Positions 1 to 61,685 of a DNA stretch of 64,000 bases are shown in pieces. A model generated the notes under the pieces. The model made no database searches. It saw only the letters and a list, made by a program, of their open reading frames with translations, and had not been told where the DNA came from. Source of the DNA: an uncultured virus (IMG/VR IMGVR_UViG_3300042392_001228) (taxonomy: Duplodnaviria; Heunggongvirae; Uroviricota; Caudoviricetes). The translations under genes were made by a program, and so were the position numbers. Positions within the stretch are counted from its first letter, which is position 1, and every line of letters starts with the position of its first letter. The DNA lies in IMG/VR virus record IMGVR_UViG_3300042392_001228, positions 1 through 64,000 of that record; one strand, written 5' to 3'.

Positions 1-531
1 CTTTTCAATCTTATCCTGTGTGGTTTTCCTTAAGTCATCAAACTTCGGTGAGTCTGACATGCGCTTCAGCAACCCCTCCTGGCGGCTTAGCTTCTCTCCT
101 ACCTCTTTCATTTTCTCGTTAATTACAGCCCAGTGCTCACCGGTTAGAGCCGCTTTGACTTTGCCCTTTGCACCCACCGTTTGAGTTCGCCCAGAGCTTT
201 CCACAATTTTTGATCCTTTCGGGAGCATACTCGCAAGTTGGCCGATTGCATCGTTCTCTCCCTTCTCTTCAGGGGTGCCCTTGCGGCAGGTCCCTCCGGT
301 ACCGTATGCGGTGCCATTGGGGCGGACGCAGCGAGTGTAGTCATAGTTCTCTATGTATTCTCCGCGAGCCTCACCGGATTTTGCAACAAATTGCTGCTCT
401 CCGCGACTCTTAACTCCCTCGGAAAAGTTTTGAAACTTCCCTGTGTCCGCAAGGTCTGACGTTTCGTAGCCTGCTTCACGCATCAGAGCGAGAAACTTTT
501 CGGCGGAGTCAGGGGTGAATGAGCCTTGCAT
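1..531 (-). CDS. Polymorphic effector-family protein, 3' end runs off the window (not in ORF track)
   Basis: Manual translation from ATG 531: MQGSFTPDSAEKFLALM...QNFSEG...NYDYTRCVRPNGTAYGTGGTCRKG..., open to position 1; GGGTAAAA 22 nt upstream. Confidence 0.85.
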   Translation of the reverse strand, partial: MQGSFTPDSAEKFLALMREAGYETSDLADTGKFQNFSEGVKSRGEQQFVAKSGEARGEYIENYDYTRCVRPNGTAYGTGGTCRKGTPEEKGENDAIGQLASMLPKGSKIVESSGRTQTVGAKGKVKAALTGEHWAVINEKMKEVGEKLSRQEGLLKRMSDSPKFDDLRKTTQDKIEK

Positions 532-595
532 ACGATTTACCGTGTATGCCTTATTTTACCCTGTTTGCTTCGCAGGCGTAAAGGGGCGGTTAACC
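521..595. repeat. ~75 bp direct repeat, copy 1 (promoter, 5' UTR and first codons)
   Basis: gagccttgcatacgatttaccgtgtat...ttttaccctgtttgct.cgcaggcgtaaagggg.cggtt.acc; also at 1546-1621. Confidence 0.9.
554..561 (-). promoter_or_regulatory. Putative late promoter GGGTAAAA
   Basis: 22 nt upstream of ATG 531; recurrent motif. Confidence 0.75.
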
Positions 596-626
596 GCCTA
601 ATAAAGCTAGTGAAACGTAAAGCCAG

Positions 627-1556
627 TTATACCGCTTCAAGCTCAACAATAACATGCATTGGCATTTTCGATACTTTTTTCACTTTGAACGGCTGACCAC
701 GGGGTATAAGAACTTCCTCTTCCGATTTGGCCGCTGAACCTTTTCCCAAGTACACACCCCCGTGATCCCCCGAAATTTTCAAAGTAACTCCTACTGTATT
801 AAGCGCGGTGTTTATTGAAGAACCCTTTGCTGTAGCTTTGTTATACTCAATCGCCCTGTTACCGAAAACAGATCCATAAGACTCATTACTTCGTGCCCTA
901 TTCGCTGATGAAGATTGGACAGCAGGATCAGAATATATTCCTCCAACTTTGAAGTACTTGTCAACATCTGTGTAGGGAACTCGGATCCCTCTTTGAAGGT
1001 CTCCGCTATGTTTGGGGAGTTTTGCCATTGCAGACTGGAGGCCTACGATCGCCTCGTTTGCAATCAAAGGTCCACTCGTTACGCCTCCCACGCCCTTATA
1101 CGCCTTTTCAGTTGGTTTTCTCCCACGCATTAGGATGTTCATGGCAATATATCCGTTTTCGCTATAGTGCAAAATGGATCCCAGTTCCACTGCAGTAAGT
1201 TTGTGATCTTTCGCAAACTTTCGGTAGTGGTCTTGTTCGGACTTTGTGTACTTTTCTAAGAGACTAGAAAGTTTCTGTCGAGCTTTCTCACCTTTTGTAC
1301 TAGTATCTGGCTTGAACTCCCTCACCTTTGCAGTTGAACGACTCGGTGAAGAAGACTTTCTTGGGGGATGCTGCCCGGAATCTGGCTTAGCTGCTTGAGT
1401 CCCTTTCCTGCATTGCCCTGCTGTTCCGTACGCGTCGCCGTTAGGCTTTACACAGCGAACGAAGTCATAGTTCCATTCAGAGAAGGAAAACCCGTGAGTA
1501 TCTCTGAGGATCTCAGCGTAAGTAGAGAGTGCTTCGTCAGAGAAGGAGCCTTGCAT
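627..1556 (-). CDS. Effector-family protein with C-terminal VIP2/C3-like (R-S-E) ADP-ribosyltransferase
   Basis: N-terminal GSFS..FSE..YDFVRCVKPNG..YGTAGQCRKG; C-terminal Y..MN..MR, LQRGI, VQSSS, SEEEVLIPRG motifs. Confidence 0.85.
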   Translation of the reverse strand: MQGSFSDEALSTYAEILRDTHGFSFSEWNYDFVRCVKPNGDAYGTAGQCRKGTQAAKPDSGQHPPRKSSSPSRSTAKVREFKPDTSTKGEKARQKLSSLLEKYTKSEQDHYRKFAKDHKLTAVELGSILHYSENGYIAMNILMRGRKPTEKAYKGVGGVTSGPLIANEAIVGLQSAMAKLPKHSGDLQRGIRVPYTDVDKYFKVGGIYSDPAVQSSSANRARSNESYGSVFGNRAIEYNKATAKGSSINTALNTVGVTLKISGDHGGVYLGKGSAAKSEEEVLIPRGQPFKVKKVSKMPMHVIVELEAV

Positions 1557-1621
1557 ACGATTTACCGTGTATACTCTATTTTACCCTGTTTGCTACGCAG
1601 GCGTAAAGGGGGCGGTTTACC
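1546..1621. repeat. ~75 bp direct repeat, copy 2
   Basis: Near-identical to 521-595. Confidence 0.9.
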
Positions 1622-1858
1622 CTCACCTTGATTCCCCCCTCCGCAACCACTCTTAATCTCCTCGGACCGCACCCACTCCTTCAACCCAGCAACGTACGCC
1701 CTTAGCAACTCAGCTTGTTGCAAGTTCTGGGGGCACCCCGTTCTAAGATGCAAGGACATGTGTCGGTCTATTGCATCTAGGCATGTTTTGATGACAGGGT
1801 TCCACGGTTCCCTGACTTTCGTGTTGTATGTTCTTTTCGTCTCGTCAAAGTCTTCCAT
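1562..1858 (-). CDS. Hypothetical phage protein
   Basis: ATG 1858 MEDFDETKRTYNTKVREPWN...; 3' end reads through the repeat at 1546-1621. Confidence 0.6.
   Translation of the reverse strand: MEDFDETKRTYNTKVREPWNPVIKTCLDAIDRHMSLHLRTGCPQNLQQAELLRAYVAGLKEWVRSEEIKSGCGGGNQGEGKPPPLRLRSKQGKIEYTR
1579..1586 (-). promoter_or_regulatory. Putative late promoter GGGTAAAA
   Basis: 22 nt upstream of ATG 1556. Confidence 0.75.
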
Positions 1859-2035
1859 TGCCTTGTTAACTACGTACTTAGTGTGGGAATCCGTTTCGTG
1901 AAGCAGCAAATTTCCAAGGGTGCGACCTTTGGTTTCGGGCTCCGCACAGTCACAAATAGTCCGTCATTTGCCAGAATTCGTATACAAATAAGGAGTGGGA
2001 GCGCAAAGAGCCTAGTTCTTCTACCGCAAGCACAA

Positions 2036-2764
2036 TCAAACAACTTGGAGTGTGCGATTGTAGTACATTTTGCGGTCTTCAAGACCGTTGTAGCCGCCGT
2101 TAACTCTCCTGGTAACCTGCTCCACAGAAGGGTTTTTGTCACAAAGAGCATTCATTCCGTTGTTAAACCACCAGAATCCTGCCGAAGAGAACGGGTAATT
2201 ATCCGCAACGTAGTTCACACCTTGCATCACCTGAGGGTCTTTAGTAAAATTAGCAAAGTCTTGGTAGTTCGCACGCCCTGTCAATTGTATGTAGCCCGCA
2301 CCCTTGAAACGGGGGCCATCGCCCGGTTGTGTATTCCCCAGGTCTCTCCTACCTTCGTAGTCCCACCCCGAAGCAAGTTCTTTCTTCCAGCGGCCACCGC
2401 CGGACTCGTGAGCTGTTTGACTGAGAAAATGGCGAATTCGGGGCGGTGTTGTTATTCCGAAGTCCCCGAGGCACTTGTTTAGCTCGGACACTTCGGAGTC
2501 AGTGATTAGGGTAGGGGAGCATTGCCACACGTAGGCTAGAGTTTCCTTGGAAACATACTGCTTCGGTGAGGGGGCCACAGGTTGAGTGGGCGGAGTGTAG
2601 AGTTTACGGTACTTTTTCACCCAGGCTGCCTCATCTGTCAGCAATTCTGGTTGCTTTGCAAAAACTTGCTTAGCAAAGTCAAGGAAAGCAGCTTCTTGGT
2701 AAGGGTTGTCGCTTCTGCGGTAACGAACGAAATCGAGGAATTTTTCCGGTGTGAATTGTGGCAT
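2036..2764 (-). CDS. Endolysin, glycoside hydrolase family 19 (chitinase-like)
   Basis: [46 protein letters not shown]. Confidence 0.92.
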
Positions 2765-2791
2765 TGTTACTTGGTTACTTGGTTACTAAGG

Positions 2792-2799
2792 TTTTACCC
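2792..2799 (-). promoter_or_regulatory. Putative late promoter GGGTAAAA
   Basis: 27 nt upstream of endolysin ATG. Confidence 0.75.
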
Positions 2800-2820
2800 C
2801 CAGGCCCCCTAATAACTGTT

Positions 2821-3942
2821 TCACTGAGACTGTGCCCTGCGGATCCGTTGTGTTGCAATTTCCAGGTACTCAGGCTCTCGTTCAATTCCGATGAAGTCAA
2901 AACCCTCTAGTTCACACGCCATACCCGTAGAGCCTGACCCCATGAATGGATCGAGCACGATGCCACCGGGCGGGGTGACAAGGCGGCACAGGTAGCGCAT
3001 CAGATCTACCGGTTTCACTGTGGGGTGGATGTTACCCTCTCCCCTTTCGCGTTTACTTGCTTTGGGACAGTAAAAGAATCGAGCGGCGCTGCCGGTACTG
3101 CCTGACGGGAACAACCCCACCACCTCGTCGCTGCCGTCGTGGATCAGGTTGGCGGGCCAGCGGCCAAGAGTGTTTAGCTTCTCAATAGCAGCGTCTGCGG
3201 CTGCCTGCCTGCGGACTAATCCGTTTGGATCGTTTTTCCACGGACGATCCCACCCATCTGACGATCCACCTAAAATTGCTTTGCCGCTCATTTTGGGCAA
3301 AACGTCGTCCGTCCCCACCCTGCACCCATCCACATTCAGCGCCCCAGTGCCGTGCTCCAGCACGTTGGCGGCCACGGTGCCCGTCAGCGGCTTACGGGCC
3401 ATGGTGATCGGCTCCAGGGCGGGCTTTAGCGCAGTGCCCCAGCCGGCCCACTGCTGGGCTTCAGGGGTGGCGGGGGCGTCTCCTGCATGCTCGTGATAAC
3501 CGTTCGCCCTTGCTTTCCTCATCCAAGGCCGTTCGTCGAGTTCATTTGAAAATCCTTTTCCCGCCGTTGATCGGGGTGTCATAGGGGTTCTAACCACCTC
3601 CCGCTCAGCCCCCCTCGCCTTATCAATCGCCTTCGATACATCTAACGATTTCGGGAACCCCGACCCGTAGACCCAGGCGATCATGTCCCGAATCTCAAAG
3701 CCCGCATCCTCAATCCTTGCCGCCATCCGATGCTGGGTGCGCGTGCCAGCGAAGGCCAGCAAGTGCCCGCCAGGCTTCAACACCCGCAGGCACTCGGTCC
3801 ACACCTCAACCGTGGGCACGTTATAGTCCCATCGCTTGCACATGAAGGACAGGCCATAGGGCGGATCAGTCACCACTGAATCCACACTACTATCGGGCAT
3901 GGTTCGCAGCACGTCAAGGCAGTCGCCAAGTAAGAGAGTCAT
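2821..3942 (-). CDS. Site-specific DNA methyltransferase (N6-A/N4-C, beta class)
   Basis: VVTDPPY near N-terminus; HPTVKP and VLDPFMGSGSTG near C-terminus. Confidence 0.93.
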   Translation of the reverse strand: MTLLLGDCLDVLRTMPDSSVDSVVTDPPYGLSFMCKRWDYNVPTVEVWTECLRVLKPGGHLLAFAGTRTQHRMAARIEDAGFEIRDMIAWVYGSGFPKSLDVSKAIDKARGAEREVVRTPMTPRSTAGKGFSNELDERPWMRKARANGYHEHAGDAPATPEAQQWAGWGTALKPALEPITMARKPLTGTVAANVLEHGTGALNVDGCRVGTDDVLPKMSGKAILGGSSDGWDRPWKNDPNGLVRRQAAADAAIEKLNTLGRWPANLIHDGSDEVVGLFPSGSTGSAARFFYCPKASKRERGEGNIHPTVKPVDLMRYLCRLVTPPGGIVLDPFMGSGSTGMACELEGFDFIGIEREPEYLEIATQRIRRAQSQ

Positions 3943-3992
3943 TCTTTAGTTGAGTATGTGTAGTTTGTTTTGAGCCTTTGAGGGGCATACGG

Positions 3993-4000
3993 TTTTACCC
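3993..4000 (-). promoter_or_regulatory. Putative late promoter GGGTAAAA
   Basis: 50 nt upstream of methylase ATG. Confidence 0.6.
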
Positions 4001-4050
4001 TCGGCCCCGTAAGAGGAGTCCCTGAGAGCACAAGGAAAGGTTCCCCCGGC

Positions 4051-4215
4051 CTATGTCTCAGCAGTATCCGTCTTGTACCTGTTAATGCCCCTGATGAAGG
4101 AGTCCATGTTGGTTGCTTTCTCGGCATCTTCGATGAACTTGCGCCTATCCTCGAAAAGGACCGGTTGAATAAGAACAGCGAGAATGCGGCTGATTGTAGG
4201 GTCGTTGATGTTCAT
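4051..4215 (-). CDS. 54 aa partner protein coupled to the upstream effector (candidate immunity; not in ORF track)
   Basis: ATGA overlap with stop of 4212..5588; MNINDPTISRILAVLIQPVLFEDRRKFIEDAEKATNMDSFIRGINRYKTDTAET*. Confidence 0.7.
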   Translation of the reverse strand: MNINDPTISRILAVLIQPVLFEDRRKFIEDAEKATNMDSFIRGINRYKTDTAET

Positions 4216-5588
4216 TCGTTTTCGTCGGGGATTTGTGAGTCCATGGCGGCAATGATTGCTCCACGGTTGAGAAGAACCAAATAGTCCTCCCCGTGTTGGG
4301 GGATCGTGTAAGCGTGTATTCCTAGTGCCGCTGCAGCTTCACCTAGGTCCCTATAGGTGTATCCGGTTTTTTCCTTTGCGTCCTTAACAGTCCTCTCAGC
4401 CCACTTCATTGCTTCGGTTCTTCTCTCAAAAAATGTTTCACCCTGGAATTGAACTATATTTGCGTCTTTACGAACGGCAAAGACGGTTATCTTGGATGAT
4501 ACGTTTTTAAGGTTCCCTGTATAAGCCGTGGCGGTTCTGATGGCTTTGTCCTCGCCCCCACCGTTATCACCTCGAAGTCCTTGAGAGTCGTCTTGAGCCG
4601 CTCCTGCAGAGTAAGACCCGTTACCATGTACCCCCCTTCCAGGGTAGTGAGTATCTCCCTCACTCCCCAACCCTTTGAATTGATCTGAAAATTCCTTGGA
4701 AGTAACACCACGATAGAAGATTAGAGGGGATCCGTCAGAGTTTGTTACAATGTCCTTTCGTTTTCGTAAATCGTCGACCGTTGCAACAAGCTCGGGCTTG
4801 GCGTTGAACCCTTGCCTCTTGTACAAAGAGGCTAGTGTTGGGGATGAGGGTAGTTCTGGAACTACTTTGTCTATCGGGGAGCTACTTCCCGGAGTCTTGT
4901 CATACTTAGGAGACTCTCTCAGTGCCGCTTCGTACGTCTTCGGGTCTCTACCCGGCAGCCTCCTCTCTCTCAGCTCCTTTTCCTTCTGATAAATCAACAG
5001 TCGAAGATTAATCAATCGGGCCTTATTTGCAACCGTGTCCAACTCCGGCGACTTAACCAGGGTTTGCATCATCCTGTAACTTCTTTTTATTTCCGCCACT
5101 GCTTTGGGACCTGACCCAACCCAATCGTATTCATCCTGCACCTTGGGGTTGTTTTCTGAGACTGCTTTCCTCAGCTCTTCCCTGCTGGTTTTCCTATCTC
5201 GCCCAGTCCCCTGCTTCACTAGCCGACCTTCAGGAGCTTTCTCCCCTTTGCTCTTGAGTAAACCCTCTAAAACTGCCCTTTGCTTTGGGGTTACGCGAGG
5301 GTCCTGGAGAACCTTCTTAAGGTCTTCAGCTCCCAACCCTTTTATTTTTTCGGTGAGCCTCATTCCCCCTGCTTTAGGGCCACGCTTTCCTTTTACTTGA
5401 CTCTCCTCTTTCGCCCCAATTTCTGTACCCTGCTTACACTTTCCTCGGCTACCATATATAGTGCCGTTCGGTCTTAAACAGCGAGTGAAGTCATGAGTGT
5501 CTCCATCGGAAAAGTTCAAAGGGTGCGTCTCGGCGATGAGAGCTTCGTACGCTTGGAGAGCTTCAAAGGAAAAAGAACCGGATACCAT
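4212..5588 (-). CDS. Effector-family protein with putative ART/PARP-like C-terminal domain
   Basis: Start reassigned to ATG 5588 (MVSGSFSFEALQAY..NFSDG..HDFTRCLRPNG..YGSRGKCKQG); C-terminal FYRGV..HYPGRGVHGNGSYSA..EDYLVLLNR. Catalytic call tentative. Confidence 0.7.
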   Translation of the reverse strand: MVSGSFSFEALQAYEALIAETHPLNFSDGDTHDFTRCLRPNGTIYGSRGKCKQGTEIGAKEESQVKGKRGPKAGGMRLTEKIKGLGAEDLKKVLQDPRVTPKQRAVLEGLLKSKGEKAPEGRLVKQGTGRDRKTSREELRKAVSENNPKVQDEYDWVGSGPKAVAEIKRSYRMMQTLVKSPELDTVANKARLINLRLLIYQKEKELRERRLPGRDPKTYEAALRESPKYDKTPGSSSPIDKVVPELPSSPTLASLYKRQGFNAKPELVATVDDLRKRKDIVTNSDGSPLIFYRGVTSKEFSDQFKGLGSEGDTHYPGRGVHGNGSYSAGAAQDDSQGLRGDNGGGEDKAIRTATAYTGNLKNVSSKITVFAVRKDANIVQFQGETFFERRTEAMKWAERTVKDAKEKTGYTYRDLGEAAAALGIHAYTIPQHGEDYLVLLNRGAIIAAMDSQIPDENE

Positions 5589-5603
5589 GTTTATACTCGT
5601 TGA

Positions 5604-5611
5604 AGTTACCC
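5604..5611 (-). promoter_or_regulatory. Late promoter variant GGGTAACT
   Basis: 15 nt upstream of ATG 5588; overlaps the Gly-stop of the upstream gene. Confidence 0.5.
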
Positions 5612-6142
5612 GTTGCAAACAGGCAATGTTGGCTTCCTTTCAGCTTGGCCGCCTTGCCGCCCCATTTCTTGAACTTGCTGCTGAGGCTGCTGGTCGAACG
5701 TTTGACCTTGCTGCTGTGCCGCTTGCTGCGCTTGCTGGGTGGCCTGAAGCTGCTCTGTGCTTCGAGGCTGGGGCCTCGGACGGCAGTTTTCCTCGTAGCT
5801 TGCCGAGAGTTCCTTGCCCTTTTGCCCCAACTCATCAAACATTGCCAGTCCTTTAAGATCGCTACGCGATCTTGGGCCTTGCTGGGGGTTTCCCTTCGAG
5901 ATAGAAACAGGGAAGATTGACTCTGAACTTTGCTCCTTTTGCTTACCCTCACTTCCTCTTTGTTTCCCCGGACGACTATCAATGTCCATGCCTTGTAAAC
6001 TTTGGGCGTGCGTAGTTTTGTTCTCTCTCGGAAGCTTCTCTGTGGTCTTGCCCGTCAAAAACTGCTGTTCCCACGGAGACTCGCCGTACAGCATTTCTTG
6101 TACGGCAGCTAGAGATTCGGTTGTAAATCCGGGGACGTTCAT
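5606..6142 (-). CDS. Hypothetical Gln-rich protein with GF leader
   Basis: MNVPGFTTESLAAV...; tiles between neighbouring genes. Confidence 0.65.
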   Translation of the reverse strand: MNVPGFTTESLAAVQEMLYGESPWEQQFLTGKTTEKLPRENKTTHAQSLQGMDIDSRPGKQRGSEGKQKEQSSESIFPVSISKGNPQQGPRSRSDLKGLAMFDELGQKGKELSASYEENCRPRPQPRSTEQLQATQQAQQAAQQQGQTFDQQPQQQVQEMGRQGGQAERKPTLPVCNG

Positions 6143-6227
6143 TCTTACTAGTTCTTTTTCGATTGAATCTGAGTGGAAGTTAGCGTTCCGTGCTCCAGGG
6201 TACTCCCGCTCTTGCGGTGAGTTCTAC

Positions 6228-6794
6228 TCATCGCATTCTTCCACTAACTACTCCACCCTTAATACCCGACTCTACTCTTTTACGGAAAGAGTCTCTCTTT
6301 CTCTCTTCCGGGGTCATAGCCTCACGCTCTTTCGCTGCCTTGGTCCCAGCCTCGCTTCTACCCTCAAGTTTAAGCCTTTCTGCCATAGCCTTCTTTATGG
6401 CTAAGGCGTGGCCCTCTTTCACATCGGTTTCATCGTTGTCTATGGCTTTAATCACCGCCTTATGAATTGCCCCCAAGTGCTTCACTGACTCTGCCTTTGC
6501 GTAAATCTTGTTAAAGGTCTCGTCCGCGTCACTATTCCAGCTTATATTTCGTTTAGCGTCCTCTCTCGCTAGCTCCAGTTGTTCCGGCGTCATTGGGCCT
6601 AACCCACGGCTTTTTGTTAGGGCCACCTCTATTCCCTTGCGGCATTGTCCCGCCGTCCCATATGCGCTACCATCAGGTTTTACACATCGAGTGAAGTCGT
6701 ACGATTCTCCCTCAGAGAAGTTCTGGGGGTATCTTTGAGAAACAAGTGCTTCGTAAGCTGAGAGGGCTTCACCGGAAAAGGAACCGTTTGTCAT
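6228..6794 (-). CDS. Effector-family protein, C-terminal domain unknown
   Basis: MTNGSFSGEALSAY..QNFSEGESYDFTRCVKPDGSAYGTAGQCRKG. Confidence 0.85.
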   Translation of the reverse strand: MTNGSFSGEALSAYEALVSQRYPQNFSEGESYDFTRCVKPDGSAYGTAGQCRKGIEVALTKSRGLGPMTPEQLELAREDAKRNISWNSDADETFNKIYAKAESVKHLGAIHKAVIKAIDNDETDVKEGHALAIKKAMAERLKLEGRSEAGTKAAKEREAMTPEERKRDSFRKRVESGIKGGVVSGRMR

Positions 6795-6813
6795 GGTAAT
6801 TCTCTTTAAGTGA

Positions 6814-6821
6814 CTTTACCC
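6814..6821 (-). promoter_or_regulatory. Putative late promoter GGGTAAAG
   Basis: 19 nt upstream of ATG 6794. Confidence 0.75.
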
Positions 6822-6860
6822 TACTTCCTTCCTATCAACAAGGCCAATAGCCGTCCAACC

Positions 6861-7178
6861 TTACCCCTGGCAAGAACCGTCGGGACGTCCACAAGTTACA
6901 AAGTCCAAGGCACCGCCAAGCATCGAAGCAACCTCCTGAGCAACCTCCTCGGAATAACCCATCGACGTTAGCCGCTCTGCATGATCCTTCGACTTTCCTG
7001 CCATTGAAAGTGCTATTGCAATGGCCTGATCTTGAGACTTAACAACCTTACCTTCTTTCCCCTTCTTTCCTCGTCCTGAATGCAACGGTTTCGGATCGCC
7101 GTGCTTCCACCGGTGCATCACTTGCCCCACTTCGTCTTTGTGGGCCGACATCGAGTGATCTTCAGGAAGCTTCGACAT
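6861..7178 (-). CDS. DUF6496-like small protein ending in a truncated Cys module
   Basis: VMHRWKHG..LHSG..KVVKSQDQAIAIALS; C-terminal LDFVTCGRPDGSCQG*. Confidence 0.7.
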   Translation of the reverse strand: MSKLPEDHSMSAHKDEVGQVMHRWKHGDPKPLHSGRGKKGKEGKVVKSQDQAIAIALSMAGKSKDHAERLTSMGYSEEVAQEVASMLGGALDFVTCGRPDGSCQG

Positions 7179-7203
7179 TTTACGTGAACCGGACTTACAG
7201 ATA

Positions 7204-7211: not shown

Positions 7212-7275
7212 TGCCTACTCTCTTTGTTATAGGCGGACTTACCCGTATGAACAGAGGGGGATCCCACCCGTGGGG

Positions 7276-7449
7276 CTAGAGGTAAGCCCCGCCTAAGAGC
7301 GCATCCTCACTTACATCCCCCTTCTCTCGCAGCTTCATTGCAGCTTCAAGGTACGGATTTGCGCCGTCACCAAGCTCGCCGCGTCTTTCCTTGTAACGAG
7401 ACATGAGCGCGATATACTGCGCGTCGTTTTTTCCTGTAGTCCCTTTCAT
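7276..7449 (-). CDS. 57 aa kinase-partner protein (candidate immunity/inhibitor; not in ORF track)
   Basis: TAATG overlap with kinase stop; MKGTTGKNDAQYIALMSRYKERRGELGDGANPYLEAAMKLREKGDVSEDALLGGAYL*; homologous to 45762..45923. Confidence 0.85.
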   Translation of the reverse strand: MKGTTGKNDAQYIALMSRYKERRGELGDGANPYLEAAMKLREKGDVSEDALLGGAYL

Positions 7450-9026
7450 TAGATACCCTTGTAGAGTGTGTTGATCACTTCCATCGCTTGCTTGTCGCTT
7501 AGTTTAGCCCAAGGTCCCACCTTATACTTCTCGTCGCGAGTGCTAGTTTTAGTGGTAAGAACTTTAGTCATGCCTTCACCGTCTATTCCAAAACTTCGGA
7601 GTTTCTCGATAGCTCTCTCTCTGTTTGTGTACGCTTTGTAAGCTAGCGGGGCATCCTCTTCGAGAAATGCTAAGTAGTTTGCTTTTTGTTTCGGAGTGTT
7701 ATACTTTCTTTCCACATCTGCAATTAGGCTCCCACCTGGACCCCAACTCTTAAAGGTGGAGTCTGCGCTTTTTCCTCTGGGTCCCGGAAAGGCACCTAGT
7801 GCCTCCACAAGAGCAGCTTTCGGATTGTCTTGCGCCAGCCCCATATCAACAAATCGCCCTTTACCCTTCTCATCTACCAAAACATTGCCCCCATGCATAT
7901 CATTGTGTGCGACCCCCATCCTGTGCAGATCTGCACGAGCCTTCCAATAGGCGTCGGTGTTCCCTTTACTGGAATCTCTACTCGGATTCATACCTAGAGG
8001 GGTCCCTTGAACTTTTGACATAGCGATACGGCCGTTCCTTAGGTCTACCCCCGTTCCCTTGGGGCCAGCGGGTCCGCCAATATCCGCAGCAATCAGCTTC
8101 GGCCCCAAGTCGGCTTTACCAACTTTATCTACGATAGCCGCCTCCGTGCGGCTAATTATACCTCTTTTAACAACTTCGCCGTCCGGACTTAGAATCGCAG
8201 TGCCGTACATACCCGACCCTAGCATCTTAGCCTTTTCGCCAAAGGTTCGACTCCAACCATCGTACTTCGGGTCTCCCTGTCTCACATGGTTGCTCTTTTC
8301 GATCTTAGAGTCCATGATCGCGGCTATTTCTTCTTCGTAGGTTAAACCAGCTGAGTTCACTTTCTTGGATGACTCTCTTGGACCCCGGTTCTCTTCAAGA
8401 ATGCTCTTGATGTCGGCCAGAACTTCTTTTTTCGTTACTTTTGCTCCGCCGCTCTGACCCCCACCGGGTTCTAACCCGGACGCTTTTCGTTGTGACACAG
8501 CCGAAACTTTTTTGGCGATCGCCGGTAAAAGTTGCCGTTCGGCCAGCAGCTTGTTTACTTGCGCTCTCTGTTTGTCGTTCAGCCTCGGGTCATTTAGAAC
8601 CTTCTTCAGTTCTTCAACGGGTAGCGCCTTGACTTTGGCTGTCAAACGCATTTTTCCCTGCGTTACGGCCCCCTTTGACGGGTCCGGTACCGCTTTCTTA
8701 CTCAACAGCTTCGCTGAGAGTTTTGAGAGTGACGAATGGAGTTCCGAGGGAAGGGGTTTCCCCTGTGGTGTTGGCTTTACTGTCTTCTTAGTCCTTTCGG
8801 TCTTTGTCTTCTCCCCCTTTACCCTTGGCACTTTTTTCTCTGGACCACCCTCTTTAACTTGCTCTGTACCCTTCCTACACTGCCCCGCCGTCCCATACAC
8901 AGTGCCATCTTTCCTTACACAACGTGTAAAGTCGTACGTTCCCCCCTCAGAAAAGTCCGATGGGTGCTGTTCGGCAATCAGTGTTTTGTACGCCTGGAGG
9001 GCATCGGACGAGAAGGAACCTTGCAC
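7449..9026 (-). CDS. Effector-family protein with C-terminal Ser/Thr protein kinase-like domain
   Basis: GTG 9026 QGSFSSDALQAY..DFSEG..YDFTRCVRKDG..YGTAGQCRKG; kinase motifs LGSGMYG, VVKRG, HNDMHGGN, VDMG. Confidence 0.88.
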   Translation of the reverse strand: MQGSFSSDALQAYKTLIAEQHPSDFSEGGTYDFTRCVRKDGTVYGTAGQCRKGTEQVKEGGPEKKVPRVKGEKTKTERTKKTVKPTPQGKPLPSELHSSLSKLSAKLLSKKAVPDPSKGAVTQGKMRLTAKVKALPVEELKKVLNDPRLNDKQRAQVNKLLAERQLLPAIAKKVSAVSQRKASGLEPGGGQSGGAKVTKKEVLADIKSILEENRGPRESSKKVNSAGLTYEEEIAAIMDSKIEKSNHVRQGDPKYDGWSRTFGEKAKMLGSGMYGTAILSPDGEVVKRGIISRTEAAIVDKVGKADLGPKLIAADIGGPAGPKGTGVDLRNGRIAMSKVQGTPLGMNPSRDSSKGNTDAYWKARADLHRMGVAHNDMHGGNVLVDEKGKGRFVDMGLAQDNPKAALVEALGAFPGPRGKSADSTFKSWGPGGSLIADVERKYNTPKQKANYLAFLEEDAPLAYKAYTNRERAIEKLRSFGIDGEGMTKVLTTKTSTRDEKYKVGPWAKLSDKQAMEVINTLYKGI

Positions 9027-9050
9027 TGTACAGAGTCTATACCTACACAA

Positions 9051-9058
9051 TTTTACCC
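9051..9058 (-). promoter_or_regulatory. Putative late promoter GGGTAAAA
   Basis: 24 nt upstream of GTG 9026; overlaps the Gly-stop of the upstream gene. Confidence 0.7.
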
Positions 9059-9262
9059 CTCAACATAAACCTCCAGCTCTTCCAGAAAGTCTCGAAGCTG
9101 CCGCGTCTGGTGAGACAGCCGTGAAAGAAGCAAAATGGAGTCCGCCAGGAACTCTTCGAGTTCGTCACGAGACAACTCCTTGAGTCTCTTTCGCACAGAT
9201 TGGGCGCGGAACTCAATCTCCAGGGGAAGCGGTGTTACGCTAAATGTCCTCGGTGAATCCAT
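9053..9262 (-). CDS. NblA-like phycobilisome degradation protein (putative)
   Basis: 69 aa; LPLEIEFRAQSVRKRLKELSRDELEEFL resembles NblA LSLEQxF...MSREQ..FL. Confidence 0.55.
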   Translation of the reverse strand: MDSPRTFSVTPLPLEIEFRAQSVRKRLKELSRDELEEFLADSILLLSRLSHQTRQLRDFLEELEVYVEG

Positions 9263-9917
9263 GTGCAATTGCCTGCAATTTGTAGAATTTATCTGCGGCC
9301 CACTCTCTCTCTTCAGGCGACAAGTCTTTTTCCTCAGCATACTTGACAACAGTATTGAGTTCGGACTCTGAAAGTTCTTTCATGGAACTCACAAGTTCGG
9401 GAGAAGCCACGTAAGGCTTAACATCGTCGTCGTTAAAAATAAACTCTCGTGTGGTCCAATCTTCAGGGTTAGAGTCGTAGGAAACATGGTAGTTATGGTT
9501 TGTCATATCAACCATAATTACTTTCGATTCAGGTAATCCCAACTCTGTCGCAATTTCGGTGTAAGTCTTCTTTTGCTTCAGTAGCTCGTCTACCTTGGTC
9601 TTATACGTCGCAACCCATCGCGGGGTTTTCACCATTCGGGAGTAGTCCCGCAAAGCGTGCTGGATATAGCCTCTGGCGGTTCTCCAAGCAAAGGTGCTAA
9701 ACTGAACTTTTTTGTCGGGGTCGTACCGTGTAGCAGCAACGCAGAGTGCGAAATTCGCTATTGACTCAAGGTCCTCTCTTGTGAGAGAGCCGGTGTACCC
9801 GCCCGTTGAGCACTTAGCACCGTAGGCGAGTCGTCCAGCGATCCACTTGTGGTCTCTTACCAAACACTGTTGCTCTTTTGTGAGCTCAGGGTAGCGCCTG
9901 TAGCGTCTTTTTGCCAT
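9240..9917 (-). CDS. Phage sigma-70 family sigma factor, SigF/SigB-like
   Basis: REDLESIANFALCVAATRYDPDKKVQFSTFAWRTARGYIQHALRDYSRMVKTPR (region 2); TYTEIATELG (region 3). Confidence 0.85.
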   Translation of the reverse strand: MAKRRYRRYPELTKEQQCLVRDHKWIAGRLAYGAKCSTGGYTGSLTREDLESIANFALCVAATRYDPDKKVQFSTFAWRTARGYIQHALRDYSRMVKTPRWVATYKTKVDELLKQKKTYTEIATELGLPESKVIMVDMTNHNYHVSYDSNPEDWTTREFIFNDDDVKPYVASPELVSSMKELSESELNTVVKYAEEKDLSPEEREWAADKFYKLQAIAHGFTEDI

Positions 9918-9918
9918 A

Positions 9919-11862
9919 TTAAGCCTCGCAGCTTTTGCATTCGTTGTAAACGCCGTCTGAATCGTCATGGGCGCTGACCGTCTCGGTGTTATTCGATTGT
10001 TTGTATGCTATGTAGTCGGTAAAACCCCCAATGTGTTTCTTGAAGAGCCATAATTGTGGTACAGTTGTCCACTCAGGGTTCCAAAATCCTTTTTCTTCCG
10101 CTTCTGCTTTCGTGATTTCTTCGTACCGAACTCCCTCCATGGATAGTTCGTTCTTAAGTTTCACACACCATGGACAACCCTCACGGGTCACAATCAAAGC
10201 AGGGACAACTTCTTTATTCGTAAGAAGGCTGCTTGACTTCAGGTAATAAAGGGACTTTAGCTTCATCTTCCATGCTGCCAGGTGCAGACGAGTAATATAC
10301 GAGGCATCTGACTTCGGGTCTGGAAACAGATTTAGCGATTGACCCTGACACACGTAAGGTTGCCGGTCTGCAGCCTGCTTGATAAGCTCAAACTGGTCTA
10401 CTTCCCTTGCAGTCCTAAACACTTCTTTTTCGTGCTCAGTCAAGCATTCAATGCCCTGAACACTTCCCTTGGCCACTAGAATTTGATCCCAAACTTCCGG
10501 ACCTACTCCTCTGTCGCAGAAGATTTTTTCAAGGTACTGATTCTTTCGAACATATGTGCCTTTAGCTTGTTTGGCGACGTAATAGTTTCGGTCTCGTGGC
10601 TCTATGCCTTCGGTGCCTGCCCCGCAAATTACACTATTTGTTTTGGTTGGTGCGATCGCGATTAAGTGCGTGTGACGCATTCCGGTACCCTTGCACCATT
10701 CCGGTTCCCCAAACCGCTCGGCCAGCTCCTTCGAAGCTTTGACTGCTTCCTCCTTCATCCATCGAGTTGTTTCGACGTTTAACTCTCGCGCCCCTTGTGA
10801 CTTCACAGGTAAACCGTGCAGTTGATAGAGGGAGTGAAGTCCCATGACCCCTAGGCCAAGGGCACGGCTTTTCTCTGCGAAACGAACGGACCTACCCATG
10901 CCAACCTTGTCTTTGGCTTTGCGTATGAACTCGCTAACGACTGCCTCAAGGAAGTGGATCCCAATTTGAGGAACAGTACGGCCTGAAGTAGGAGACTTCC
11001 AATCCTTATACTCGTCGTAGCGGCTCAGGTTTAAGCTACTGAGGACGCACACGAATGAGTGGTTCTCGTCAGTGTGAAGGAAGATTTCGCTGCAGAGATT
11101 ACTGGTCTTTACAGTCAGTCCCCTTTCTTTGTAGCAATCCGGGTTCTGGTTATTAGCATTGTCAATAAAGATTAGGTACGGGGTCCCCGAGATCATTCTT
11201 GTTCTCAAGACCTCTGCGAACAACTCATGCTTTTGTTTATCGCCCTTTATCATGGACTCAACCCACTCATCGGATATGGTGAGTGCTATGTTTGAGTCTA
11301 CCCATGTCCGTGGGTCTCCTTTTGTGTGATCCTTTGCACGAAGCAGTTCTGGAACGTCCGGGTGATCAATAGGCAGGTAAAAAGCGAATGATCCTCTCCT
11401 GACTCCCCCTTGGCTCACGACTCTCGCACAAATATCGTATTGCTGCATCCAGGGCACAGCACCAATTGATTTTCCTCCCCCAGTTATAGGCGACCCTGCG
11501 GGGCGAATTTCCCCGAAGTAGTTGCCCACTCCTCCCCCACTTTTGCTCAGTTGAGCTACTTCTTTCAAGTGAGAGTAGATAGAGGAAATGCTATCTGAAG
11601 GGTGTACAGAGAAGCACGATATAGGCTGACCACGGTATGTACCGAAGTTGGAAGCCACCGGACTCGCTGCGCCAATCCAGCCGGACCAAAGGCAGTGGAA
11701 CAAGTCTTCGTCTAGTGTCGGATCTTCGTTTATCTTTGAAGCCGTTTTTGCTAGACGGCTAAACATATCTTTTGGAGTCTCCCCTACTAATAAGTAGCCA
11801 TTAGAGAGAGTATGAAGGGCCTCTTCATTCATCCAATGTGGGTGAGTAAGTTCTGTATTCAT
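9919..11862 (-). CDS. nrdA: Class I ribonucleotide reductase alpha subunit with inserted glutaredoxin domain
   Basis: ISCF, SNLCSEI, CVLSSLN, IAPT, KSLYY; Grx CPWC..TVPQ..IGGF; terminal CKSC. Confidence 0.95.
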   Translation of the reverse strand: MNTELTHPHWMNEEALHTLSNGYLLVGETPKDMFSRLAKTASKINEDPTLDEDLFHCLWSGWIGAASPVASNFGTYRGQPISCFSVHPSDSISSIYSHLKEVAQLSKSGGGVGNYFGEIRPAGSPITGGGKSIGAVPWMQQYDICARVVSQGGVRRGSFAFYLPIDHPDVPELLRAKDHTKGDPRTWVDSNIALTISDEWVESMIKGDKQKHELFAEVLRTRMISGTPYLIFIDNANNQNPDCYKERGLTVKTSNLCSEIFLHTDENHSFVCVLSSLNLSRYDEYKDWKSPTSGRTVPQIGIHFLEAVVSEFIRKAKDKVGMGRSVRFAEKSRALGLGVMGLHSLYQLHGLPVKSQGARELNVETTRWMKEEAVKASKELAERFGEPEWCKGTGMRHTHLIAIAPTKTNSVICGAGTEGIEPRDRNYYVAKQAKGTYVRKNQYLEKIFCDRGVGPEVWDQILVAKGSVQGIECLTEHEKEVFRTAREVDQFELIKQAADRQPYVCQGQSLNLFPDPKSDASYITRLHLAAWKMKLKSLYYLKSSSLLTNKEVVPALIVTREGCPWCVKLKNELSMEGVRYEEITKAEAEEKGFWNPEWTTVPQLWLFKKHIGGFTDYIAYKQSNNTETVSAHDDSDGVYNECKSCEA

Positions 11863-14834: not shown

Positions 14835-15437
14835 TCAAATAAAGTTTCGAAGTTCGGGACTAACCTCACGCACTTTTTTGGTGAAACGTGAAATGTGACC
14901 GTTTGTAGCCTGTTTCGTAAGCCCATACTTTTGAGCAACTTCCCCTTGTCGCATTGCCTTTCTGCCGAGTAGTCCAAATCGGTCGCAGACGATTTGTGCT
15001 CTCTTGCTGTCGAGAGAACCACAACCCTTCTTTATAATGTCTGCAATGTCCATGCGAGCAAACTCTTCCTTCAGTTCGTAAGCGTTCGGGTCTTCAAGGT
15101 TGTTCGACCAGTCTGACTGCTCTAAGGACAGCGCAAACTTGGGGTTCTTTTTCTCTTTTCTTGCAGCACCCTGAACCGCACCACGAACGTTCGGGTAGAT
15201 CCACGTCATTGGGCGGATGCCCCGCCCGTTGACCCGATAGTTAAGGTCAAACGTTTTGATAGCTTTTACGATGCCAAGTAAACCCTCTTGAACAAGATCG
15301 TCGTAGATATAGTCGTGACCCATAAATTTGTACTTGTGGGCAAACTTATGAACAAGTGGGGTGAACTGCTTCAGAGTCTCGCTGACCGCTAGAGAATCTC
15401 CTCGAACTGCGCTGTAAAAGGTTTCGTCTGTGTACAT
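14835..15437 (-). CDS. Second phage sigma-70 family sigma factor (regions 2 and 4)
   Basis: YDDLVQEGLLGIVKAIKTFD; IVCDRFGL..MRQGEVAQKYGLTKQ HTH; alternative TTG start at 15449. Confidence 0.88.
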   Translation of the reverse strand: MYTDETFYSAVRGDSLAVSETLKQFTPLVHKFAHKYKFMGHDYIYDDLVQEGLLGIVKAIKTFDLNYRVNGRGIRPMTWIYPNVRGAVQGAARKEKKNPKFALSLEQSDWSNNLEDPNAYELKEEFARMDIADIIKKGCGSLDSKRAQIVCDRFGLLGRKAMRQGEVAQKYGLTKQATNGHISRFTKKVREVSPELRNFI

Positions 15438-15457
15438 GGTGTTTTTCAACTACAATA

Positions 15458-45738: not shown

Positions 45739-45746
45739 TTTTACCC
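45739..45746 (-). promoter_or_regulatory. Putative late promoter GGGTAAAA
   Basis: 40 nt upstream of ATG 45698; merges with a G10 tract. Confidence 0.7.
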
Positions 45747-45761
45747 CCCCCCCTCCCTCCC

Positions 45762-45923
45762 TTAGATGTACCTCGCTGCCTCTTTCGCCTCAGAGCTCAC
45801 TCCGCGTTTTCCAAGTTTCATAGCTGTGTTTAAAATATCCCGAGCACGATCTCTTTCGCTTGGGTTTCTCCTTACCCTTTTGTAGAGTGACATGAGGTCG
45901 AGGTACTTTTGGTCCTTGTCCAT
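45762..45923 (-). CDS. 53 aa kinase-partner protein (candidate immunity/inhibitor; not in ORF track)
   Basis: TAATG overlap with kinase stop; MDKDQKYLDLMSLYKRVRRNPSERDRARDILNTAMKLGKRGVSSEAKEAARYI*; homologous to 7276..7449. Confidence 0.85.
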   Translation of the reverse strand: MDKDQKYLDLMSLYKRVRRNPSERDRARDILNTAMKLGKRGVSSEAKEAARYI

Positions 45924-47185
45924 TAACTAACACCTTCGTAGAGTATAGAAATAAGCCTTGAAGCATCTTCTTTGCTGATCTTACCCCAGGCACCTTTGTT
46001 GTAAGAGCTGAGCGGTTGGTCTAAACTGTGGGTCACCACCTCAGCAATATCGTCTTTGTTTAGCCCGAGCTTTTCCATCTCGGAGTAAACTTTGATTCGG
46101 TTTCGTATAATCTTCCCGAGGTTTGTTTTGGGGGTAGTACCCTTCGGAGTAACTGTAGCGGATGGTGGCAAGTAAAACTGTTTGTTGTCTCGTGCCTGGA
46201 AATCCCCTGAGTTTTCATTGAGTGGCTTTCTGAGCATTGCACCAGGGGGCAGTAAGTACCTCACCGACAAAACTCCGATGGCCTCTGAGAGGGCGGCACG
46301 AGGGTCGTCCTGTGAAACACCGAAGTCAACAAAACGTGCTTTCCCCCTGTCGTCGATAATTACGTTTCCTACGTGGGCGTCATTATGGGCAACACCCTGC
46401 TCATGGAGTTTCTTTCGTAGAGCGTAGTAAGAGTCTCCCACAGTTGTGTTTCCAACTGGGCTTTCGTAAGAGTCAAAGTCTTCAGCTGGCTTACCCCTTA
46501 CACGGGACATTGCTATTCTTCCAGGGTAGTACCCAGCGTTGTTGAACTCAGCAGACTTATTCATCTCAGCCGAGATTAGCTTGGGGGTTATATCCTTTCC
46601 ACTTAATTTCTCAAGAATTCTCACTTCATTTTCCCCCACCTCTCCCCTTTTCACGACTACGGACGGGGGTGGTTTGGATGCAATTACCGCTCCGTACAAA
46701 CCTGATCCTAACCCCTTTGATCCTGATTCGTACGACTGTTTCCAGTCGTAGCTACCCCCTAACTTTAGGGTTGGTGTAAACTCGGAGTCGAATTCGAGTG
46801 CATTTTGACGTTCTTGAATAGCTGGGCGATCCGCCCTGGTGTGCTTGGCCCATGTGTCAAAGAGTGCCTTTTCAACTTTCGTAGCCCTGTTTATCTCCTC
46901 GTCCGTCATATAATCTTTATTGCGCAGCTCAGCAAGCTGGCGCTCTGCCTCCCGCTTTAACGAGGGGAAGTCATTACCTACCCTGACCTTTGAGTTGGAC
47001 GCTAACGCCTCAATAAGGTCCTTGACCAGCGGGTTTGTCTCGCCACTCTTAGCAACTTTGCCTGCTAATGATCCCTGTAAGTTTTCTACTTGGTGGGATA
47101 GTTTGGGGGTCAAGGAGGCTCTGCACTTAGCCTCGCGGCTAATGCAGGTACCTCCGCAGCTCTTTCCCTTGGTGCAGCGCTTCAT
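45923..47185 (-). CDS. Ser/Thr protein kinase-like protein with N-terminal Cys4 module
   Basis: ATG 47185 MKRCTKGKSCGGTCISREAKC; LGSGLYG, VVKRG, HNDAHVGN, VDFG. Confidence 0.88.
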   Translation of the reverse strand: MKRCTKGKSCGGTCISREAKCRASLTPKLSHQVENLQGSLAGKVAKSGETNPLVKDLIEALASNSKVRVGNDFPSLKREAERQLAELRNKDYMTDEEINRATKVEKALFDTWAKHTRADRPAIQERQNALEFDSEFTPTLKLGGSYDWKQSYESGSKGLGSGLYGAVIASKPPPSVVVKRGEVGENEVRILEKLSGKDITPKLISAEMNKSAEFNNAGYYPGRIAMSRVRGKPAEDFDSYESPVGNTTVGDSYYALRKKLHEQGVAHNDAHVGNVIIDDRGKARFVDFGVSQDDPRAALSEAIGVLSVRYLLPPGAMLRKPLNENSGDFQARDNKQFYLPPSATVTPKGTTPKTNLGKIIRNRIKVYSEMEKLGLNKDDIAEVVTHSLDQPLSSYNKGAWGKISKEDASRLISILYEGVS

Positions 47186-47186
47186 T

Positions 47187-48029
47187 TCACTGTAGCTCTG
47201 GACTCCCTGCCTCACGAGCAATTTTGAACCTTTGTACGGATCCAGCTGCTTCCCTACCATCTTTGTCAGCTTTTATACTTATAAACTTTCCATCGTTAGA
47301 CACCACTTTTCCGGACATCTTATCGCCAGTCTTTTTGTCATAGAAATCTGTGGACATTCCAACTTTCATTTCAGACGCCATGTTGGGGTGCATCACACCT
47401 GCTTGAGCGAATTCCCTATTGTTCACCCAACGGCGGGCAGGTTCTTTAGCTTTTGCTTTGGTTTCGGCTGCGCGTTGAGCCATGGCTTCACTCTTACGTG
47501 CGGCAGGTGTCTTACTGTCGCCCTTGGCCAGTCTCCCTTCCTTTGCATTCGCTTTTTTAATAGCTTCAGCTTCAATCTTGGAGTAAAGGGCTCTCGCCCC
47601 TTCCACGTCGCCTTTCTTTTCTAGACTTGAAAACTGGCTTTTAACCTCGGGAGTGTCAAGCACCTGACGCATTAATCGCCAGGTCGCGTTACTAGTAAGT
47701 CTCTTTTCTTTGATAGCTTCCTTTCTTTCCTTGTTATTTTTAGCTTTCTTCTCTACTGGCTGCTTAGCCTGTTCGGCACCTTTCTTACACTTGCCCCTAG
47801 TACCGTATGCTGATCCATCCGGGCGAACGCAACGTGTGAAGTCATAAGAGCCAAGGAGTGTATTCACCGCTTCTTCAATAAACGGGTACTTATTCCCGTA
47901 ATTTTCAGAGAAGGAGAAACCTTCGGATGCTAACGCATCCGCTTCATTGCGGAGTTCTAAAGCTTCGCCTAAGTTACCTTTCAGTGCTTCTGAAAGGGCT
48001 TCGAGGTAACAATGGTCGAGTTCGTTCAT
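47187..48029 (-). CDS. Effector-family protein (type 2 leader)
   Basis: ..GFSFSEN..SYDFTRCVRPDGSAYGTRGKCKKG. Confidence 0.85.
   Translation of the reverse strand: MNELDHCYLEALSEALKGNLGEALELRNEADALASEGFSFSENYGNKYPFIEEAVNTLLGSYDFTRCVRPDGSAYGTRGKCKKGAEQAKQPVEKKAKNNKERKEAIKEKRLTSNATWRLMRQVLDTPEVKSQFSSLEKKGDVEGARALYSKIEAEAIKKANAKEGRLAKGDSKTPAARKSEAMAQRAAETKAKAKEPARRWVNNREFAQAGVMHPNMASEMKVGMSTDFYDKKTGDKMSGKVVSNDGKFISIKADKDGREAAGSVQRFKIAREAGSPELQ
47856..48029. repeat. 174 bp coding repeat, copy 1
   Basis: 57 of 58 aa identical to 61464..61637. Confidence 0.9.
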
Positions 48030-51604: not shown

Positions 51605-51612
51605 TTTTACCC
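51605..51612 (-). promoter_or_regulatory. Putative late promoter GGGTAAAA
   Basis: 21 nt upstream of ATG 51583; overlaps a Gly-stop. Confidence 0.7.
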
Positions 51613-52287
51613 GTTCAAGGACAGTAAAACCGAGAGAAGAGAAAGGTCACCGAGAAACTTAGCTGAGGTTGCTTGGTCGGTCTGCTCAGAAAATGAAGCC
51701 TCAGAGCTTCTGAATAGCCTCTGTAGCTTCAAAAGGTCGGAGTTGTACTTTCGTGATATGGCGCCCGAAATTTGGGCCACTTTGGGAAGTTTTGACCCTG
51801 CAAAAGCTGCACCAATTCCGGTGAACTTTCCTGCGAGTAGGGGCAGAGCTTGATGAATAATCTCACGACTTTCCTGGTGGGTTAGGAAACTTTCCACACC
51901 TGTGTGGGCACTTTTTCCCAGGAACGCGGCAGAAGCTTCTGTGAGTAGGTCTCTTACAAAGTCCTCACTCGACCTTAAATGTCGAGAGTGAAGTCCCGTG
52001 GCAACCACCGCTTGAATAATAGTCTCTGATAACTTTTCTGTGGTTTCTGGGGGTATGCCGTAGCGAGTTTCTAGGTACTTTGATACCAGGGGGCCAACAA
52101 CTTTCCCAACTTTCCAGGAAGTTACGTTGGCCCCAACATGCTCCCCAAGGTGCAGCAACTTTTCACTGTTACGTGTGAGACTGTCGCTCACTGACGCCGG
52201 CAACTTTTTCTCGCACTTAAAACCCTTGCTTATGCAAGTTGCCGAGCAAGACTTTCCTGCTGTGCATTTTTTCCTAGGGTTGCCCAC
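51607..52287 (-). CDS. Protein with N-terminal Cys4 module
   Basis: KKCTAGKSCSATCISKGFKC; ASFSEQ near C-terminus. Confidence 0.75.
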   Translation of the reverse strand: MGNPRKKCTAGKSCSATCISKGFKCEKKLPASVSDSLTRNSEKLLHLGEHVGANVTSWKVGKVVGPLVSKYLETRYGIPPETTEKLSETIIQAVVATGLHSRHLRSSEDFVRDLLTEASAAFLGKSAHTGVESFLTHQESREIIHQALPLLAGKFTGIGAAFAGSKLPKVAQISGAISRKYNSDLLKLQRLFRSSEASFSEQTDQATSAKFLGDLSLLSVLLSLNG

Positions 52288-61637: not shown

Positions 61638-61685
61638 GTCTGATGTTGTGAAAATTTCAGGGAGTGTTTTCACCCCGTCTTTTTA

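Follow-up and report, generated by a model that had tools for sequence, protein, structure and literature searches.

The 64,000-nucleotide (nt) stretch analysed here (hereafter the window), positions 1 to 64,000 of the uncultured virus record IMGVR_UViG_3300042392_001228, encodes two protein-kinase-like proteins, and the gene of each runs into an overlapping open reading frame (ORF) of less than 60 amino acids (aa). The question raised by this locus is what such a small protein does beside a kinase. A sequence-only reading of the window had proposed effector-immunity pairs, in which the small protein restrains the kinase in the producing cell and is left behind at packaging. On the evidence from the two pairs and their relatives in other phages, we tentatively favour another role, that of a dedicated kinase-binding subunit that would travel with the kinase into the next cell, a reading that we regard as a serious candidate while placing it somewhat below probable.

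Two kinase genes, each overlapping a small partner gene

The first kinase, K1 (525 aa; positions 7449..9026, minus strand), starts with GTG at 9026 in a frame that is open to a TTG at 9050, and the gene callers' product is the identical 525-aa protein (P0026). It carries an N-terminal module of about 57 residues with the motif YDFTRC...DG..YG (tag 1; 8856..9026, minus strand) and a 278-aa region comprising the kinase domain and a C-terminal helical bundle (7452..8285, minus strand), in which the glycine-rich loop, the lysine of VVKRG, HNDMHGGN and VDMG are present and for which a fold model was obtained (see below). The partner gene S1 (57 aa; 7276..7449, minus strand) has its start overlapping the stop of K1 in the sequence TAATG. 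The paralogous kinase K2 (420 aa; 45923..47185, minus strand) has an ATG at 47185 in a frame open to 47260, and a different N-terminal module with the cysteine motif C.KGKSCGG.CI (tag 2; 47066..47185, minus strand). The start of K2 at ATG 47185 was accepted because the cysteine motif then sits at the very N-terminus, as it does in gp106 and gp162 of Synechococcus phage S-CBWM1. The start of the partner gene S2 (53 aa; 45762..45923, minus strand) likewise overlaps the stop of K2 in TAATG, and S2 is followed by a gene for a 1590-aa tail fibre.

K1 and K2 were identical at 99 of 286 aligned positions (35%, E 4e-45), and S1 and S2 at 20 of 51 (39%; E 5e-6, for a single comparison). A GAGGG or AAGGG stretch lies inside the conserved last codons of the kinase gene, ahead of the partner start, and from this arrangement the partner gene is predicted to be translationally coupled to the kinase gene. 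The observations on which the sequence-only reading was built, namely the TAATG junction at both kinase ends, the homology of the two small ORFs and the motifs shared by the two kinases, were all confirmed.

The small ORFs are genes of one protein family

The ratio of nonsynonymous to synonymous substitution rates (dN/dS) was 0-0.11 among S1 orthologues, with dS up to 1.2, and 0-0.25 among S2 orthologues. Differences from the window at codon positions 1/2/3 numbered 14/0/75 for S1 orthologues and 9/4/29 for S2 orthologues. At one related locus (L030) a single A-to-G change converts TAATG to TAGTG, and both the stop and the start are kept. A profile of the small protein retrieved 25 proteins in one database and 129 clusters (50% identity) in another; the members are 44-144 aa long, and the match reaches the C-terminal end in nearly all rows listed. 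A further search for loci with a narrower small-protein alignment returned mostly the contigs already known. By the sequence comparisons, then, the small ORFs appear to be real genes under strong purifying selection, as had been supposed. That they are chance frames in 3′ untranslated sequence might be argued from their length of less than 60 aa and from the absence of a match to any known family; the low dN/dS with changes concentrated at third positions, the 129 clusters of homologues and a peptide in a proteome (see below) refute this, and we give it virtually no credence.

S1 and S2 had no match in Pfam or PHROG and no usable match in the ESM Atlas, and the Pfam and PHROG scans included no match to a DNA-binding family. 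A profile search of the Protein Data Bank (PDB) with the small protein found designed helical proteins and natural matches at chance level only. The sole long match to the profile was a 544-aa tetratricopeptide repeat (TPR) protein (P0269), aligned through its repeated helix only. This weak match suggests a TPR-like helix in the small protein; it gives no evidence of membership in the TPR family, which was dropped. A conserved serine in a G-x-V-S pattern was also considered as a phospho-acceptor and was judged, from the sequence pattern, more likely to be a helix N-cap.

The small gene is linked to the kinase across phages

The kinase-side sample consisted of 77 viral loci with 85 kinase-bearing frames, which were grouped at 70% identity into 30 clusters. 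In 20 of these the small gene was directly downstream on the same strand, in two it was upstream on the same strand and in one convergent; five clusters had no small gene, and in two the kinase frame ran off the end of the locus. With one of these last two resolved as downstream via the longer locus L019, 24 of the 29 clusters that could be evaluated have the small gene beside the kinase. The junction was a 1-nt stop/start overlap in 29 loci and an 11-nt overlap in five, with gaps of 2-69 nt in most others. From the side of the small protein, a kinase ends directly upstream in 15 of 17 metagenome contigs found with it, that is, in 15 of the 15 that were evaluable, the other two having the contig edge 41 bases upstream; in whole phage records, 11 of 11 small-gene copies (six records) stand beside a kinase. 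The pair is also present in cultured cyanophages, as gp113/gp114 of S-CBWM1, g130/g129 of S-CRM01 and gp14/gp13 of S-CREM2, and in S-N03 and S-B68, where GenBank annotates the partners as hypothetical only. The expectation that the small ORFs would be linked to kinases elsewhere was therefore borne out; the stronger expectation that the small family always lies downstream describes the majority of clusters and fails for those with an upstream, convergent or missing small gene and for one orphan small gene (L115).

One partner gene may stand with several kinases. L019 encodes a 1462-aa protein with three tandem kinase domains (2798..7183, plus strand), one of them a match to the Pfam family OspG_kinase, and a single small ORF (7244..7411) follows after 60 nt. 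L056 has four tandem kinase genes (1104..5820) and a single partner gene after the second; this locus is one of the two upstream cases, the small gene being common to the kinase that follows it and the preceding one. Among clusters without a partner, the L044 group has a kinase in the position of K2 followed directly by the fibre gene, with intact motifs and with frameshifts in two copies; the others comprise L045/L097, the first kinase of two arrays and a partial kinase-like frame. At L070, the partner comes before the kinase, and just upstream of this cassette is a 416-aa ORF resembling TnpB/IS605 OrfB as read by eye (199..1449, plus strand); transposition may have rearranged the cassette.

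The variation in gene order bears on the idea that the small protein acts by itself, as a small cargo or early effector with a target of its own, and that common regulation and inheritance alone, with no binding to the kinase, keep the two genes together. Convergent and upstream arrangements do occur, the orphan copy lies in a 72-kb record without a kinase, these phages have clusters of many small tagged proteins, and in T4-like phages the small protein has its own leader (see below). Nevertheless, the adjacency has survived wide divergence and gene-order changes in two unrelated phage groups (S-CBWM1-like and T4-like), and the 11 of 11 copies beside a kinase in whole records, together with the stop/start overlap in 29 loci, make an independent function quite unlikely in our judgement.

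The kinases are intact, atypical and loosely related to many known kinases

K1 and K2 carry LGSG.YG, VVKRG, HND.H.GN and RFVD.G, which represent the glycine-rich loop, the catalytic lysine, the catalytic loop and the metal-binding motif, respectively, and K40, H127, N128, D129, N134 and D147 were invariant in an alignment of 36 kinase sequences. The catalytic motifs named in the sequence-only reading are thus intact. A model of the kinase domain based on the 36-sequence alignment (predicted local distance difference test, pLDDT, 91.2; predicted template modelling score, pTM, 0.90) consists of a kinase core and, after it, a bundle of helices some 95 residues long; K2 folded as a single sequence gave an unusable model (pLDDT 35.7). 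Foldseek with the kinase model returned at least 500 kinase matches, which were generic kinases with template modelling (TM) scores of 0.3-0.4. An exhaustive structure aligner gave Z scores of 10.8 for Rio2, 10.3 for WaaP with acyl carrier protein, 9.7 and 9.6 for Ark1 RNA kinases, 9.6 for Rio1, 9.4 for APH, 9.3 for YabT, 8.8 for OspG, 8.7 for Bud32-Cgi121 and 8.4 for NleH1. Because this ranking is flat, with Z between 8 and 11 across many kinases, it does not narrow the substrate class. Going by the model, the window kinases are atypical protein-kinase-like enzymes of the superfamily resembling eukaryotic protein kinases (ePK-like), with the bilobal fold.

Sequence searches placed the kinases in no established family with any firmness. 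The Pfam Pkinase family (PF00069) was matched over the catalytic loop only, with 20.3 bits for K1 and 20.8 bits for K2, below the gathering cut-off of 31.7. ABC1 and APH matches around the catalytic loop were below threshold, except that K2 just reaches the APH cut-off (23.5 versus 23.2). RIO1 (PF01163) gave no match to K1 or K2 at E <= 0.1, and the structural likeness to RIO kinases (Z 9.6-10.8) is tied with that to many other kinases. At least 209 proteins belong to the kinase family; their N-termini vary, and fusions to an ADP-ribosyltransferase domain are among them. The Phage_Mu_F domain is absent from K1 and K2 in Pfam; in one relative (L095) the kinase is fused to this head domain (E 1.9e-12; 48.4 bits, cut-off 29.6), with the small gene alongside. 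A scan of 185,579 bacterial and archaeal species genomes, covering conserved patterns of the kinase family only, found one weak match, and on this result an origin in bacterial toxin-antitoxin systems was dropped.

The kinases of polyvalent proteins described by Iyer et al. (2017, PMC5512222) form a clade without the whole C-terminal subdomain and with an insert between the catalytic His and Asp, whereas the window family has HND without an insert and possesses the helical C-terminal bundle; the available text of that paper describes no partner gene for its kinases. According to their entry titles, the nearest folds are often paired with a bound partner. WaaP-acyl carrier protein, Bud32-Cgi121 and OspG-E2-ubiquitin, all among the best structural matches (Z 8.7-10.3), are minimal kinases with a small protein partner. 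The comparison has its limits, since the window kinases belong to none of these families by sequence, the ranking is flat and the partner of about 50 aa resembles none of theirs.

N-terminal tags point to the kinases as probable packaged cargo

In T4-type phages, cargo such as the internal proteins and Alt bears a short signal at the N-terminus that directs it into the head, from which it is injected together with the DNA (PMC3012670 and PMC5512222, as far as their available texts go). A corresponding sign, a shared N-terminal sequence on otherwise unrelated proteins, was found for both tags. Tag 1 is on seven proteins of this record and on 15 of a 98%-complete relative (G001). Besides K1, it is carried by a 280-aa protein directly upstream of K2 (47187..48029, its stop 1 nt before the K2 ATG), a 188-aa protein downstream of S1 (6228..6794), a 468-aa protein with a PHROG match to 'minor head protein' (4212..5618; tag 5421..5582) and a 309-aa protein with a PHROG match to Alt-like RNA polymerase ADP-ribosyltransferase (627..1556; tag 1395..1556), and a 215-aa protein (61026..61673) matches it partially at 61377..61460, all on the minus strand. 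The Alt-like protein may be a second packaged enzyme, and its tag is a point of likeness to the T4 scheme; the window tags are longer, cysteine-containing modules that differ from the T4 signal.

Tag 2 is on two proteins of the window, K2 and a 226-aa protein with a tag-2-like N-terminus (51607..52287, minus strand; 52180..52272), and on five in S-CBWM1, namely gp106, gp113, gp161, gp162 and gp174, the last annotated as a virion structural protein. For gp113 and gp161 (L127 4465..5325 and L128 888..1703) the motif is found a little ahead of the annotated start and in the same frame, so both are probably annotated too short. By tblastn and profile comparison, S-CBWM1 gp113 (RIO-like), gp161 and gp162, S-CRM01 g130 and S-CREM2 gp14 belong to the same kinase family as K1 and K2. 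Kinases have been detected in virions of S-CRM01, S-TIM5 and S-CBWM1, and for S-CBWM1 these are APH, ChoK and Rio2 kinases, citing Xu 2018 (both from the available text of PMC10665884). The N-terminal modules, which the sequence-only reading had called packaging modules, behave as shared cargo tags, and this indirect evidence makes it plausible that the window kinases are packaged effectors. As that reading also stated, neither partner carries such a module in this phage; S1 and S2 match neither tag 1 nor tag 2.

In T4-like cyanophages the partner itself appears to be cargo

The partners in T4-like cyanophages are 75-79 aa long, the extra residues at the N-terminus forming a leader of the kind that their kinases carry. 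In S-CREM2, gp13 matches the small-family profile (E 1.8e-13), and among 49 of 85 coding sequences in the stretch examined the leader pattern matches only gp6, gp13 and gp14. The published proteome of purified virions lists all three, with 19 peptides for ORF6, 21 for the kinase (ORF14) and one unique peptide, at 11.5% coverage, for the partner (ORF13) (Table 3 of PMC10665884). From the kinase-type leader and the presence of gp6, gp13 and gp14 in this table, the partner itself appears to be cargo in the T4-like lineage. The proposal that the partner is left behind at packaging is thus contradicted in T4-like cyanophages.

These data also bear on a role confined to assembly, in which the small protein would be a chaperone or loading adaptor that folds or solubilises the kinase, or hands it to the prohead core, and does nothing after delivery. 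Translational coupling would provide co-translational pairing, the partner is tagless in the window phage, and a single peptide in S-CREM2 virions is a low signal, all of which would suit such a protein. A purpose-built leader on the T4-like partners is hard to explain if the partner stays outside, and other tagged cargo proteins have no such partner; we therefore think a purely assembly-related role very unlikely.

A dedicated subunit or an immunity protein

The sequence-only reading held that the small protein blocks the kinase in late synthesis and is left behind at packaging, so that the kinase acts only in the next cell. On this view the kinase would harm the producing cell or phage development, and the small protein would stay behind because it has no tag. 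Polymorphic toxins usually have the effector gene first and a small coupled ORF after it, the MuF-kinase fusion at L095 has the small gene alongside, some kinase relatives are fused to an ADP-ribosyltransferase domain, S1 and S2 are without both tags, and the partner was never found fused to a kinase among the 129 small-protein clusters. An immunity protein is expected to co-diversify with its toxin domain. The opposite was found here: a single conserved partner family spans kinases with identities of 27-49%, and the partner changes less than the kinase does, S1 (dN/dS 0-0.11) having 3 differences in its 57 residues in a comparison in which identity in the kinase domain is down to 74%. Arrays of two to four kinases or kinase domains have one partner between them, kinases with intact motifs exist without a partner, and T4-like partners carry a cargo-type leader, with S-CREM2 gp13 found in virions. 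On balance, an immunity function is unlikely.

MuF polymorphic toxins (Jamet et al. 2017, PMC5576092) share the general layout, in which an N-terminal module associated with the head is joined to a C-terminal enzyme that varies and a small ORF lies downstream; a MuF toxin was followed by an ORF of less than 150 aa in 89.4% of 191 cases, and S1 and S2 lie directly downstream of K1 and K2 in the same way. The differences are that the window kinases have no MuF domain and that the partner is conserved rather than hypervariable and seems to be packaged in T4-like phages. The word 'kinase' does not occur in the available text of PMC5576092.

With these points against immunity, we favour the dedicated subunit, for which the strong constraint on the small gene, its linkage to the kinase, the cargo signs of the kinases, the leader and virion detection of the T4-like partner and the partner-bound nearest folds also speak. 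The window holds two diverged copies of a conserved two-gene cassette made up of a tagged kinase and the small gene, which encodes a helical stand-alone protein of about 50 residues. Under this reading, the N-terminal address tag would mark the kinase as cargo that is loaded into the head and delivered with the DNA, and the small protein would bind the kinase domain and go with the kinase into the next cell. In the window lineage the partner would ride bound to the tagged kinase, and the T4-like partners would be brought in by their own leader. Once in the new cell the partner would act on the kinase, in all likelihood to stabilise or activate it or to determine its target; restraint of the kinase until delivery seems less likely.

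Several observations weigh against the dedicated subunit. The partner's presence in virions is indicated by a single peptide in one phage, and the proteome paper itself notes possible carry-over or co-purification of abundant proteins (PMC10665884, available text). The S-CREM2 leader pattern was derived after the sequences had been seen, from 49 of the 85 coding sequences. As the partner has no tag in the window lineage, co-delivery there is something we infer. The order of kinase and small ORF and the MuF-kinase relative fit a toxin-immunity pair equally well. Kinases with intact motifs are found without a partner in the L044 group and as gp161, gp162 and gp173 of S-CBWM1, and the orphan small gene L115 has no kinase in its locus or elsewhere in its record (71,912 bp, 32% complete).

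A bolder form of the proposal makes the three-helix protein of about 50 residues a universal, obligate regulatory subunit of head-packed kinases, acting as a cyclin-like activator or labile timer, kept across T4-like and S-CBWM1-like phages and reaching the next host bound to the kinase or via its own leader. We consider this form possible and doubtful; since several kinases with intact motifs have no partner (L044 group, gp161, gp162 and gp173), an obligate subunit would not be universal. If true, it would add a novel type to the known regulators of kinases, and no partner of a phage kinase delivered by virions would have been described before it.

Source genome and neighbouring genes

The full record is a 75,214-bp viral contig with a completeness of 33% by CheckV, and close relatives of the window phage reach 277-279 kb, one of them with terminal repeats. 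The window represents about one third of a cyanophage genome of about 277 kb related to Synechococcus phage S-CBWM1. All its long ORFs are on the minus strand, and its gene content (tail fibres, terminase, ribonucleotide reductase, thymidylate synthase, PhoH, MazG, S-adenosylmethionine (SAM) decarboxylase and two sigma factors) is of the aquatic cyanophage type. The gene order of PhoH, several small genes, kinase, small gene and giant fibre gene is that of S-CBWM1, in which PhoH, tagged proteins, kinase and small gene precede a baseplate or tail-fibre gene. The window phage differs from S-CBWM1 in having a genome about twice the size and three cassettes, as judged by the 98%-complete relative, which has three kinases and three partners. 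A nucleotide search of a phage collection with the K1/S1 region found nothing.

Around the first cassette, sigma-70-like factors are encoded at 9240..9968, just upstream of K1, and at 14835..15449 (both minus strand). A 98-aa ORF upstream of K1 (9053..9349, minus strand) ends in VYVEG and a stop; a GAGGGG stretch made up by the final codons of this ORF is followed, 5 nt later, by the TTG at 9050, the alternative start of K1. The gene for a 105-aa DUF6496 protein (6861..7178, minus strand; Pfam E 2.5e-8) comes directly after S1 and ahead of the next tag-1 protein. At the second cassette, a G-rich run, GGGAGGGAGGGGGGGGGG, fills the gap between the stop of S2 and the start of the 1590-aa fibre gene (45740..45762, minus strand). 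Elsewhere in the window, the adjacent ORFs 54958..56376 and 56410..58200 (minus strand) each match a terminase large subunit PHROG (E 9e-23 and 3e-82, respectively) and could be a duplicated or split terminase.

Implications for virion-delivered kinases

Papers on the cultured cyanophages discuss the kinases alone, and gp114, g129 and gp13 have remained hypothetical proteins. The available literature on MuF toxins, cyanophage virion kinases and phage kinases mentions kinases and makes no mention of a small partner, so that within the searched literature the small family and its linkage to the kinase are undescribed. What was an unannotated ORF of less than 60 aa now represents a defined protein family with no fewer than 129 clusters. 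Kinases recur in purified cyanophage particles. The kinase of phage T7 is reported to disarm bacterial defences broadly (PMC13645617, available text). A strictly linked, conserved partner gene gives a handle on the control of delivered kinases, and as the pair is present in the cultured phages S-CBWM1, S-CREM2 and S-CRM01, the question of how these kinases are controlled is directly testable.

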